From IMG/VR virus record IMGVR_UViG_2663763286_000005, positions 1 to 21,732 of that record: a stretch of DNA of 21,732 nt; one strand, given 5' to 3'. This DNA comes from a virus (lineage: Duplodnaviria; Heunggongvirae; Uroviricota; Caudoviricetes). Under the pieces are notes generated by a model that had not been told where the DNA came from, ran no database searches, and saw only the letters and a list, made by a program, of their open reading frames with translations. A program made the position numbers and the translations under genes. Below are positions 2,280-5,103 of this stretch, in pieces. Within the stretch, counting starts at the first letter, position 1; each line of letters starts with the position of its first letter.

Positions 2280-2739
2280 TCAACGTAAGGCGTTCCTCGA
2301 TATGCTGGCGTGGTCAGAGGGAACTGATAATGGACGTCAGAAAACCAGAAATCATGGTTATGACGTCATTGTAGGCGGAGAGCTATTCAATGATTACTCC
2401 GATCACCCTCGCAAACTTGTCACGCTAAACCCAAAACTCAAATCAACAGCAGCCGGACGTTACCAGCTTCTTTCCCGTTGGTGGGATGCCTATCGTAAGC
2501 AGCTTGGCCTGAAAGACTTCTCTCCGAAAAGCCAGGACGCTGTGGCATTGCAACAGATTAAAGAGCGTGGCGCTTTACCGATGATTGACCGCGGTGATAT
2601 TCGTCAGGCAATCGACCGTTGCAGCAATATCTGGGCTTCACTGCCGGGGGCTGGTTATGGTCAGTTCGAGCATAAGGCTGACAACCTGATTGCAAAATTC
2701 AAAGAAGCAGGCGGAACGGTCAGAGAGATTGAGGTATGA
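2263..2739 (+). CDS. R: endolysin R (lytic transglycosylase)
   Basis: 158 aa, near-identical from memory to lambda R ([26 protein letters not shown]...). Start lies inside the 3' end of S as in lambda. Confidence 0.95.
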
Positions 2740-3173
2740 GCAGAGTAACCGCGATTATCTCCGCTCTGGTTATCTGCATCATCGTCTGCCTGTCGTGGAC
2801 GGTCAATCATTACCGTGATAACGCCATCGCCTATAAAGAGCAGCGCGATAAGGCCACATCCACAATCGCTGACATGCAGAAGCGTCAACGTGATGTAGCT
2901 GAACTCGATGCCAGATATACAAAGGAGCTTGCTGATGCTAACGCGACTATCGAAAGTCTCCGTGGTGATGTTTCTGCTGGTCGTAAGCGCCTGCAAGTCG
3001 CCGCCACCTGTGCAAAGTCAACGCCCGGAGCCAGCGGCATGGGCGATGGAGAAAGCCCAGGACTTACAGCAGATGCTGAACTCAATTATTACCGTCTCCG
3101 AAGTGGAATCGGCAAGATAACCGCGCAGGTTAACTACCTGCAGGAGTACATCAGGACGCAATGCCTTCGATGA
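2736..3173 (+). CDS. Rz: i-spanin Rz
   Basis: 145 aa with an N-terminal transmembrane segment and coiled-coil region, similar to lambda Rz. ATGA overlap with R. Confidence 0.9.
2935..3120 (+). CDS. Rz1: o-spanin Rz1 lipoprotein, embedded in Rz in the +1 frame
   Basis: AAGGAG at 2922-2927 sits 7 nt before ATG 2935. Signal peptide with lipobox VVSAC, then a Pro-rich mature part ([13 protein letters not shown]). The ORF opens at 2908 but 2935 has the proper ribosome-binding site. Confidence 0.8.
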
Positions 3174-3347
3174 TAGCGATAATTTTACTCATCATCCTTC
3201 ACATCTGGCTCTGTAGACAGGGTGGTGATCACTTCTGGAGTAAATCCAGATTAAACATCTCATTGCTGATGCTTGATATTGAGCATCTTGCGCGCGGTAA
3301 GGGGCTGCGTTGAGATAAGAGCCAGTCATTACAAATACCAGGATTTA

Positions 3348-3373
3348 GCCTCGCATTCGCGGGGCTTTTTATT
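3348..3373 (+). terminator. intrinsic terminator downstream of the lysis cassette
   Basis: Stem gcctcgc/gcggggc with loop attc, followed by ctttttatt. Confidence 0.5.
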
Positions 3374-3391
3374 GCAACAAAGGTAAAGACG

Positions 3392-3679
3392 ATGGATGAA
3401 GAATATCGTAAAGACCTGCAACTGTGGTTTGGTCTTACGCATGCGCCGTTCTGCGTGATGCCGCGAGTATTCATGGAGGCTATGCCGCCAGAATGGCAAG
3501 AGAAGATGGCTCAGTTGCTTTTTGAGTATAGCGACACAATCAAAACGGATGTCTGCGGAGTTCACAGCTGTTTTGTTACTGCCAAAGACGGCAACAACCG
3601 CTTTATGAGGATGCCAGAAGATATTCTGAACTATCGTCATCCCCGACGTGAATTCATCGAATCAGTTCTGAAGAAGTAG
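3392..3679 (+). CDS. hypothetical Cys/His-containing protein
   Basis: 95-aa ORF with a ribosome-binding site (aaggtaaag) upstream. Contains 3 Cys and several His (FCVMPR, DVCGVHSCF). No family recognised. Confidence 0.55.
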   Translation: MDEEYRKDLQLWFGLTHAPFCVMPRVFMEAMPPEWQEKMAQLLFEYSDTIKTDVCGVHSCFVTAKDGNNRFMRMPEDILNYRHPRREFIESVLKK

Positions 3680-3965
3680 CCATTACAAAGCCTATCTACG
3701 GGTGGGCTTGATAATGAAACCAGAGTTTATTCTTGGCAACCAGTTACGGCAGTACAGCGAAACAACCCAAGCCAGTAAGTGGGGAAATAACACTGGCAGC
3801 CACTGAAAGATGAACCCCCTGCCTTATGGCAAAAAAGATTCTTTGTGGTGGCGGACTGATGGAAAGACATCGGATAGAATAAAACAGTGGCTAGGGTAGC
3901 TCCCGAAAAGCGGAATCGTCACCGCCAGCCACTGAATCTATGACGAACAACTAGACGAGGTTGAT

Positions 3966-4124
3966 ATGAGTGAAATTGATAAAATAATAAATGGTACATG
4001 TAACTTTCAATCAATACCGCCAGGTAGTTATGTAAAACAATGTAGTGAAATAGTTAATGGTCAGCTTGTAATGTCAAATGCAGGACGCGGAGTTTTTCTA
4101 CGGATGAAAAAAATCAATAAATGA
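3966..4124 (+). CDS. hypothetical small protein (52 aa) in AT-rich island
   Basis: ATG at 3966 preceded by gagg 7 nt upstream. AT-rich codon usage unlike its neighbours. Below the ORF-track size cut-off, translated by hand. Confidence 0.3.
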   Translation: MSEIDKIINGTCNFQSIPPGSYVKQCSEIVNGQLVMSNAGRGVFLRMKKINK

Positions 4125-4355
4125 AGCCCTGTTAAGCATCAATGTTTTTGACTTGTTTCGCCCATCTTGGGTTATCTTGCAAAATAGTAGCCAATTCCCA
4201 CATTATTGATAATTAATTATTAAATTGGTCGCTAAGTCGGCCTTTTTTATTGCCATCACAAAAGCCATTCCCTACAGAGTGGCTTTGATAATGGCTTATA
4301 CCCTACACGGGATAACTTAACTGATATCCCTTTTAACGGATAAACGGAGCCAACA

Positions 4356-4598
4356 ATGGCAGAGATTATTCCCATGACTGAAGAACAGAAATTCAAGTTA
4401 GAAATTTACCGACTGCTATCTAAGAACAATTCAGCGGCAGAGGAGGCTTTTGCATTCATTGGTGCTGACCAGTTGAAACTGGAATTGTTCAAGTTGCACT
4501 ACAACGATGGCGGTGCAAATCCAGACTTCACATCTCGCACTATCGAAGCGGTGCGTAAATCGAAGGAAGCGTTAGACCTGTTCACTACCGGAGCATAA
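4356..4598 (+). CDS. hypothetical protein upstream of terminase
   Basis: 80-aa ORF with acggag 8 nt before the ATG. Same strand and spacing as the packaging genes. Confidence 0.5.
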   Translation: MAEIIPMTEEQKFKLEIYRLLSKNNSAAEEAFAFIGADQLKLELFKLHYNDGGANPDFTSRTIEAVRKSKEALDLFTTGA

Positions 4599-4677
4599 AC
4601 ATGGCAACTCAAGGTTTCGACAACCCATCCAAATTCCGCGATGAATGGGATAAGCAAGCAGAAGGGAAATAATCAAT

Positions 4678-5103
4678 ATGGCGACTGAGAAAAAGAAAGG
4701 TGGTCGCCCCTCTGATTATATGCCGGAGGTGGCTAATGACATTTGCGCATTGCTTTCCTCCGGTGAGAGTCTGCGCAAAGTTTGCGAACGCCCAGGAATG
4801 CCGAGCAAAACATCAGTTTTTCGCTGGCTGGCTGAACATCAGGAGTTTCGTGACCAGTACGCGAAGGCAACAGAGACTCGGGCCGACTCTATTTTCGAAG
4901 AGATATTCGAAATTGCTGACGACGTAATCCCTGATGCCGCCGAGGTGGCAAAGGCAAGACTTCGCGTTGATACCCGCAAATGGGCGCTGGCCAGAATGAA
5001 TCCCCGTAAGTATGGCGACAAGGTAACTAATGAGCTTGTCGGCAAAGACGGCGGCGCAATCCAGATTGAAACATCACCTATGAGCACTCTATTCGGAAAA
5101 TGA
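4678..5103 (+). CDS. terS: terminase small subunit (Sf6 gp1-like)
   Basis: 141 aa, recalled as highly similar to Shigella phage Sf6 gp1 (MAT...GRPSDYMPEV...). Directly precedes and overlaps TerL. Confidence 0.9.
   Translation: MATEKKKGGRPSDYMPEVANDICALLSSGESLRKVCERPGMPSKTSVFRWLAEHQEFRDQYAKATETRADSIFEEIFEIADDVIPDAAEVAKARLRVDTRKWALARMNPRKYGDKVTNELVGKDGGAIQIETSPMSTLFGK

Follow-up and report, generated by a model that had tools for sequence, protein, structure and literature searches.

A conserved boundary hairpin and an int-alpA RNA motif at the variable lysis-to-packaging junction of a P22-like prophage

The DNA considered here, hereafter the window, is the whole stretch of 21,732 nucleotides of the record IMGVR_UViG_2663763286_000005. 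It represents a P22-like (Lederbergvirus-type) prophage, which over 3300-4700 shares 99.9% identity with the Escherichia coli SMN013SH2 chromosome, and parts of this interval are matched in 211 phage records and in 2,592 of 5,426 complete E. coli genomes. An earlier note had pointed to positions 3680-4355 as an AT-rich island poor in open reading frames (ORFs), flanked by two copies of a hairpin-bearing repeat. The observation is real and largely explained: an RNA motif already known is combined with a moron in decay and with a boundary hairpin, here named J, which is well supported by comparison and seems not to have been described before. In the explanation favoured in this study, taken as a whole and with moderate confidence, 3327-4355 is a hypervariable junction between lysis and packaging genes in a P22-like late operon, made of serial cassettes.

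The gene order around the junction is holin, endolysin, Rz (2736-3173), a 50-aa ORF (3161-3313), a 95-aa ORF (3392-3679), the gap, a DUF2560 gene (4356-4598), an Sf6-type small terminase (4678-5103), the large terminase and the portal. The island does lie between the lysis genes, which end with Rz and the 50-aa ORF at 3313, and the packaging side, which opens with DUF2560 and the small terminase from 4356. As the note had stated, no ORF of 60 aa or more occurs in 3680-4355 on either strand, the only ones being of 47 aa (minus strand), 52 aa (plus strand) and 46 aa (minus strand). The AT-rich character is confined to 3925-4300, with a GC content of 0.34-0.37, while 3680-3925 (0.45-0.49) resembles the flanks, which range between 0.45 and 0.53. 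The features recognised at the junction are the following.

3327-3335, plus strand: orphan 5' arm of J, CATTACAAA, 14 nt past the stop codon of the 50-aa ORF that follows Rz
3347-3375, plus strand: intrinsic terminator T1, an 8-bp stem (3347-3366) followed by a T-run
3392-3679, plus strand: 95-aa ORF (ORF95), cargo of the cassette upstream of J1
3681-3716, plus strand: J1, boundary hairpin of type 1, beginning 1 nt past the stop codon of ORF95
3717-3871, plus strand: conserved non-coding segment C, containing the first copy of a 17-mer (3791-3807)
3884-3946, plus strand: int-alpA RNA (Rfam RF02996), 42.0 bits against a gathering score of 35.8, E-value 3.3e-7, full-length match to model positions 1-71
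3947-3965, plus strand: conserved linker with a Shine-Dalgarno-like GACGAGG at 3954-3960
3966-4209, plus strand: AT-rich orphan gene, comprising the 52-aa ORF (3966-4124) and the last 29 codons, intact in another frame (4120-4209)
4227-4248, plus strand: terminator-like hairpin closing the cassette, a 5-bp stem (4227-4242, one G·U) followed by T6
4254-4293, plus strand: J2, boundary hairpin of type 2, with CAUCA instead of CAUUA
4291-4355, plus strand: DUF2560 leader, in which the AUG of J2 opens a 9-codon ORF (4291-4320, MAYTLHGIT)
4356-4598, plus strand: DUF2560 gene, homologue of P22 orf80 and HK620 hkbM, the conserved right anchor of the variable region

The flanking repeats are two genuine copies of a hairpin carrying GATAATG, although their limits, 3681-3716 and 4254-4293, differ by 1-3 nt from those first proposed. 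Members of the J family are extended hairpins of 36-40 nt, composed of a 5-bp outer stem, a 2x2 internal loop, an inner stem of 9-10 bp containing G·U pairs and a loop of 3-6 nt. In J1 the outer stem CAUUA/UAAUG is followed by the internal loop CA/GA, the inner stem AAGCCUAUC/GGGUGGGCUU with two G·U pairs, and the loop UACG, while in J2 the inner stem is AAAGCCAUUC/GAGUGGCUUU, with one G·U pair, and the loop is CCUACA. The stem of 5-7 bp and the 12-nt loop initially reported are an appearance produced by counting Watson-Crick pairs alone and ignoring G·U, as the real architecture has an inner stem of 9-10 bp, a loop of 4-6 nt and a 5-bp outer stem. Similarly, the tail TGATAATG, listed as a motif next to the hairpin, is the 3' arm of the outer stem and therefore belongs to the hairpin. 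On the plus strand, J1 folds at -16.8 kcal/mol (z -6.4 relative to shuffles; -8.9 on the minus strand) and J2 at -13.5 kcal/mol (z -4.9).

A covariance model of J was built from 48 distinct copies, including the two of the window. Run on the 21.7-kb window it returned only these two, at 58.5 and 53.9 bits, the next match being at 14 bits. Among 82 related viral contigs (1.03 Mb) it found 115 copies, one or two per locus and all scoring at least 44 bits; wherever a related locus has two copies, these lie on the same strand. The repeats are thus conserved in relatives, contrary to what the note had named as a refuting outcome. Matches in a plasmid collection fall mostly in records of 16-42 kb, which are probably phage genomes filed as plasmids. 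Three types can be distinguished by the inner stem, namely type 1 (AAGCCYAUC/GGGUGGGCUU), type 2 (AAAGCCAYUC/GAGUGGCUUU) and type b (GAGRCCAUUC/GAGUGGYCUC), the latter being found in P22, HK97, epsilon34 and HF4s. In the alignment of the 48 sequences, 96.8% of the cells of the paired columns are standard pairs, compared to 33-46% when the partners are slid by one to three columns. Six of the 15 pairs are altered on both sides, and the observed covariation score was reached by none of 500 shuffles. The compensatory series include AAAG/CUUU versus GAGA/UCUC and CAUUA/UAAUG versus UAUUG/CAAUG, and intermediates are documented as well, from GAGACC/GGUCUC through GAGGCC/GGUCUC (HK97) to GAGGCC/GGCCUC (P22). 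On the sense strand, G·U accounts for 69 cells and A·C for seven.

J matches no Rfam family, and literature searches on the hairpin and on the junction found nothing specific, making it apparently undescribed. A 'mir-458' match of 17.9 bits in Rfam reflects the palindrome of J2. A role as Rho-independent terminator was rejected, as J has no U-tract and the terminator scan gave T1 and the hairpin at 4227, neither J1 nor J2. Also discarded was the AUG in J as the start of a gene, since the ORFs that it opens count 3, 9, 21, 30 or 49 codons depending on the phage.

The position of J relative to the surrounding genes varies in a regular way. In the relatives, it starts 1-14 nt, or 31-57 nt, past the stop codon of about 20 types of upstream ORF (told apart by their C-terminal sequence only), among which is a gene annotated as belonging to the Gp49 family; in the window, the gap of the 31-57-nt class between stop codon and J is occupied by an intrinsic terminator. 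In many phages a J of type 1, the left type of the window, is joined directly to the DUF2560 leader. A pair of filled and empty sites is provided by an upstream ORF ending in ...KRAEAKAK*, which is separated from the DUF2560 leader by a single J in one relative (L011) and by J, a 195-bp unit and a second J in HK97. In another relative (L252), J is chimeric, its 5' half being of type 2 and its 3' half of type b, joined in the shared CCATTC core, which disrupts the outer part of the stem. HF4s, in turn, runs from ...GACATC straight into the J hairpin and has no equivalent of 3872-4253. The filled and empty sites, together with the chimeric copy, indicate that crossovers occur inside J, and as the sole sequence common to cassettes that are presumably unrelated in all else, J would be the point where they cross over. 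J marks the ends of cassettes, with recombinant joints inside it, being a conserved motif at the edges of variable ORFs within which the end points of insertions and deletions fall.

These comparisons also clarify the suggestion of an inserted module. The island does contain DNA that is extra with respect to relatives having a single J joined straight to the DUF2560 leader; however, what lies between J1 and J2 is not a single module and consists of at least two units, the conserved non-coding segment and a cassette made of the int-alpA motif, the orphan gene and a terminator. The further proposal of regulatory RNA or protein-binding sites is supported for its first half by the structured RNA motif, whereas nothing indicating protein-binding sites was found.

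A further unit lies upstream of J1. In E. coli NCCP15648 the 50-aa ORF is succeeded by a full J and the intervening block is missing, while at the same place the window carries CATTACAAA, T1 and ORF95 ahead of the complete J1. The exact 9-mer CATTACAAA occurs on the plus strand of the window only at 3327 and 3681. The block formed by T1 and ORF95 (3327-3680; compare 2768-2880 of locus L010) is hence a cassette bracketed by the first 9 nt of J and by J1. A Rho-independent terminator is annotated at the same place as T1 in phage epsilon34. The match of the 95-aa ORF to PHROG 3527 is limited to positions 139-230 out of 233, and the ORF may represent the C-terminal remnant or domain of a longer phage protein; HF4s is annotated with a longer version of 114 aa. 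The T1 and 4227 hairpins share the tail TTTTTATTGC, an exact 10-mer repeat located at 3366-3375 and 4244-4253.

Within the island, an Rfam search of 3000-5000 (E-values up to 10) gave int-alpA as the sole credible match. The 8-mer cagtggct, which had been noticed as an inverted element able to pair with the second copy of an 11-mer repeat, does form this pairing, and the cagtggct/CAGCCACTG helix is the closing stem P1 of int-alpA; its position, 3885-3892, and those of the two directly oriented 11-mers, 3797-3807 and 3926-3936, had all been given one base too high. P1 joins 3885-3891 with 3928-3934, P2 is GGG/CCC and P3 is GCGG/CCGC. According to the cmscan alignment, P1 has seven standard pairs and one non-standard pair, and the junction bases CUAG, CGAAAAGCGG and CCGCC are present. 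The minimum free energy (MFE) fold of 3876-3970 contains all three helices, giving the expected three-way junction. The copy departs from most others in having CCGCCAG rather than CCGCCUG, and it does not have the consensus U-rich tail. Rfam lists int-alpA (RF02996) as a candidate structured RNA from comparative genomics, of unknown function and of type sRNA (small RNA); the motif does not appear in the main text of PMC5737381. In the window it is not placed beside an integrase or alpA gene, from which the name originates, but in the late operon, 19 nt upstream of the orphan ORF.

The placement of int-alpA was assessed on copies gathered from viral contigs by a sequence pattern combined with a test of P1. 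These copies display abundant covariation in P1 and P3, and the Rfam threshold was reached in 14 of the 16 loci checked, with no match in P22, HK97 and the divergent copy of L370. Of 54 non-redundant phage contexts, 85% have the start of a co-oriented ORF no more than 60 nt downstream (median 32 nt), compared to 37% for the opposite-strand control, and 54% have the end of a co-oriented ORF no more than 20 nt upstream. The motif thus occupies short intercistronic gaps with a co-oriented ORF just downstream, and therefore behaves as a 5' leader as far as placement is concerned; the same arrangement suggests that it may act in cis on the downstream ORF, with which it travels, rather than in trans as the sRNA class of Rfam would imply. 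The GACGAGG linker accompanies int-alpA in enterobacterial phages, for example ahead of DUF551 and other ORFs. In other phages, the genes that follow the motif include DUF551, Dam, Rha, a SAM-dependent methyltransferase, integrase and an HNH nuclease. One viral contig (L275) carries two int-alpA copies, at 2061-2133 and 2647-2716, 586 nt apart, and in another (L283) the motif is found together with a tRNA and a Proteo-phage-1 RNA (69 bits).

The 52-aa ORF at 3966-4124 exists as described, but it is a frameshifted copy of an 80-aa gene. The orphan gene encodes 80 aa in 13 of the 15 E. coli genomes having the whole block, and the frame shift of the window results from changes around 4092-4116. 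The ORF-poor look of the island is in part due to this shift, and the view of the island as non-coding is partly refuted, given that part of it is a continuous 80-aa ORF in relatives. The TTGACT noted in the AT-rich stretch is present at 4148-4153, in the out-of-frame remainder of the orphan gene, and represents its 3' part rather than a promoter. The 80-aa protein belongs to no Pfam or PHROG family and was found in only six clusters among 5.8 billion proteins, two of which, at 70-71% identity, are of full length and thereby speak for a real gene.

Homologues of the orphan gene at about 70% identity sit between the Q antiterminator and the holin gene, another classic moron site. In the one contig of this kind inspected (L370, an ENA contig covering the Q-holin region), the orphan homologue (79 aa) has an int-alpA-like fold ahead of it and a similar terminator after it, indicating that leader, gene and terminator move as one unit. 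The fold of this contig (2300-2500) is divergent and lies below the Rfam threshold, yet both P1 and P3 are compensated (P3 being GAGUU/AACUC), which suggests that the Rfam model misses part of the family. It begins 7 nt past a strong terminator after the Q gene, probably tR'.

Under the definition of moron by Hendrix and Juhala, as used in PMC2629481, the block shows several of the expected properties. It is extra DNA between genes that are adjacent in relatives, as illustrated by HF4s with no equivalent of 3872-4253; its GC content (0.34-0.37 in 3925-4300) is lower than that of the flanks (0.45-0.53); and it possesses its own terminator hairpin and recurs at a second moron site, between Q and holin. 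No convincing promoter of its own was found, as the sigma-70 scan placed four sites where 3.4 were expected, a background level, and none of them upstream of the motif. No -35 partner was found for the GATAAT in J or for the TAGAAT read from the sequence at 3872-3877. With no promoter found, and only 7 nt between terminator and RNA at the Q-holin site, expression probably depends on read-through of the late transcript and on the RNA leader. The int-alpA motif, the orphan gene and the terminator are thus a mobile, moron-like cassette with a decaying gene.

The cargo near the junction or the orphan gene, as seen in phage Huey (L005, 1596-2711), epsilon34 (L006, 1719-2204) and contig L370 (3033-3560), is of several gene types, among which are free-standing GIY-YIG and NUMOD4-HNH nucleases; such nucleases could drive gene conversion. 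The junction of phage Huey also contains two genes annotated as 'anti-CRISPR', one of which is probably a DUF2829-domain gene, as annotated in a relative, while the other belongs to the Gp49 family. The scan for tRNA and tmRNA found none in the window.

The first unit of the island, the C segment, is strongly conserved. From about 3743 onwards it has 90-99% identity in 159 phage records, including P22, HK97, Sf6, ST104 and epsilon34, and in P22 it follows the stop codon of rha. The 108 distinct versions show sparse variation with no codon periodicity, and an A-run (3831-3836 in the window), located inside an ORF annotated in some phage records, varies between A5, A6 and A7 among relatives. Judging from this variable length and from the aperiodic substitutions, the small ORFs of the segment are not maintained, and they were ruled out as genes; those annotated include an 'N-terminus of ST64T orf118' in epsilon34 and a 37-aa ORF in phage Huey. 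Compared to shuffles, the segment has a modestly more stable fold (z -2.3), and its variation, even with 108 versions, is too sparse for covariation. It matches no Rfam family, the best candidate, Proteo-phage-1, reaching 16.8 bits, far under the cut-off of 42, and the J-C-J regions of P22 and HK97 likewise have no Rfam match. When extended, the 11-mer repeat becomes a 17-mer identical at 15/17 positions, and 3 of 2000 dinucleotide shuffles attained its local alignment score of 24. The first copy (3791-3807) resembles the 3' end of int-alpA, and the int-alpA covariance model recognises no second copy in the C segment; the 17-mer there may be a relic of an older int-alpA leader, a suggestion prompted by this resemblance.

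Downstream of J2, the segment extending from the GAYAAUG of the J 3' end as far as the start of DUF2560 is 80 nt long in each of 123 copies. In the MFE fold (z -4.6) GGCUU (4294-4298) pairs with the Shine-Dalgarno region of DUF2560 (GGAG, 4346-4349), and the leader can form mutually exclusive hairpins, UUAUACCC/GGGAUAA and GGGAUA/UAUCCC. The predicted structures hint at an attenuator-like leader exerting translational control on DUF2560, and the variation is too small for covariation.

Several known systems can be compared with J. REP/BIME elements are enterobacterial intercistronic palindromes, whose stem-loop shields the upstream mRNA from 3' exonucleases. Like J, they are imperfect palindromes of about 35-40 nt located just past stop codons, either inside operons or where these end; unlike them, J has an unrelated sequence, is not dispersed or in high copy, has no association with a RAYT transposase and is restricted to one phage locus. 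Short conserved boundary 'linkers', providing homology for the exchange of non-homologous modules, are reportedly part of the Susskind-Botstein modular theory and of the HK620 genome paper. J differs from such linkers in being a defined hairpin family with compensatory changes and with explicit filled, empty and chimeric joints. With respect to the attC sites of integrons, J has no core sites (RYYYAAC...GTTRRRY, judged by eye), and no integrase is annotated in the eight relatives inspected. The closest described analogue is the promoter-early stem-loop (PeSL) of T4-type phages, a composite of terminator and early promoter present across many regions of the 170-kb genome (PMC2839356, PMC4122927). 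PeSLs, like J, are short conserved motifs that border the variable ORFs of a hyperplastic region, with end points of indels and replacements inside them, read as homologous module shuffling. In contrast, J has neither a U-tract nor promoter-like hexamers, and is thus neither a terminator nor a PeSL-type unit; moreover, it occurs once or twice per genome, at a single locus in the late operon of temperate lambdoid phages. The epsilon34 paper treats the 'ant moron' and does not deal with the lysis-packaging junction nor with the J hairpin.

The explanation that we consider best, with the same somewhat better than even confidence attached above to the whole of it, is that of serial cassettes bounded by J, in which J would be kept for its action on the late mRNA and used as homologous crossover point. 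J would fold in the sense strand, that of the late mRNA, its stem being kept by compensatory substitutions. Its conservation would make it the preferred homology for cassette exchange, so that cassettes would be gained, lost and swapped through J by homologous recombination between lambdoid phages. The retention of J would then reflect an action on the late transcript, the favoured role being that of a REP-like 3' hairpin for protection or processing. An additional role might be the gating of translation restart at its AUG when the upstream ribosome terminates 1 nt before.

Several points weigh against this explanation. For J2 the minus strand gives a fold no less stable than the plus strand (-15.8 compared to -13.5 kcal/mol), and the strand bias is consequently a property of the family and not of every copy. 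The covariation derives from three types and few independent events, and the shuffle controls are blind to relatedness. G·T is the least destabilising mismatch in DNA, and folding of J as single-stranded DNA therefore remains compatible with the excess of G·U. J has no U-tract, being followed by GAUAAUG..., and no promoter, as the scan placed none on the plus strand within it. Where a terminator lies between the upstream stop codon and J, as at J2, coupling to upstream translation is impossible. The Rfam class of int-alpA is sRNA and not cis leader, and the near-invariance of C, of the DUF2560 leader and of J could reflect frequent gene conversion, not function.

The last point leads to the view that J is functionless, a recombination scar derived from the piece upstream of DUF2560, carried along with each captured cassette and homogenised by gene conversion among co-infecting lambdoid phages, perhaps driven by HNH and GIY-YIG nucleases. 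Such an origin would agree with the near-invariance of J, the C segment and the DUF2560 leader even at positions having no obvious role, with the nuclease genes being themselves cassettes of the region, and with J being confined to one locus at one or two copies per genome. Unselected scars, however, should not keep a 15-bp hairpin by double changes in three types, with 96.8% of cells paired, nor favour G·U over A·C by 69 to 7 on one strand, and they do not fit the place of the homology break upstream of J, which in about 20 types of upstream ORF is only a few nt away from the stop codon; we regard this view as unlikely. Less probable still is that J1 and J2 delimit a discrete stable RNA, processed from the late transcript and capped by hairpins, with the C segment as a trans-acting sRNA. 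Such an RNA would measure about 230 nt (J-C-J) in HK97, HF4s and epsilon34, would follow rha and not J in P22, and in the window would be a capped mini-mRNA for the orphan gene. That J-C-J with a 195-nt spacing is the commonest arrangement speaks for it, as do the conservation of C throughout, its tolerance of 1-nt indels that break ORFs and its folding at z = -2.3. On the other hand, C matches no Rfam family and varies too little to probe its structure, numerous phages carry just one J and lack the C segment, and in P22 (rha) and epsilon34 (gene 68) C is preceded by a gene end and not by J.

J could also work as DNA, either as a near-palindromic site for a dimeric protein or as a single-stranded hairpin for a recombinase, in a site-specific exchange resembling that of attC. 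It is an imperfect palindrome at the 3' ends of cassettes with no promoter found, and in one natural variant (L086) the palindrome is perfect over 17 bp. In addition, the T1/ORF95 block has the exact 9-mer CATTACAAA on both sides, in the manner of a short core that has been duplicated, and the 3' arm GA(U/C)AAUG is more invariant than pairing requires. Yet the region has no linked gene for an integrase or a recombinase, either in the window or in the eight relatives inspected, and the attC core signature GTTRRRY/RYYYAAC is absent, by eye, from the J sequences. A stem free to covary would be unusual in a sequence-specific operator, while the chimeric J and the pair of filled and empty sites are what homologous exchange predicts, leaving a DNA-level role very improbable.

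Morons, mosaic hot spots, including those in P22-like late operons, and boundary motifs in general are already known. For annotation, the small ORFs of this region (the 52-aa fragment, the 'orf25'-type ORFs and 'MAKKIL...') should not be called genes. For int-alpA, the results provide a testable role as a 5' leader moving with accessory genes in phages of Escherichia, Enterobacter, Edwardsiella, Pseudomonas and other hosts. In the debate on phage mosaicism, which opposes homologous exchange at 'linkers' to random illegitimate joints filtered by selection, the J locus provides a compact and testable case for the linker view in the classic model phages P22, HK97 and Sf6. A bolder possibility, advanced only tentatively and rather unlikely as it stands, is that the lambdoid late operon is organised in a 'plug-and-play' fashion, with genes that would carry a portable int-alpA leader and end in a J that would insulate or stabilise the message and give homology for exchange. 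If true, this would amount to an integron-like cassette array run by homologous recombination, with no need of an integrase.

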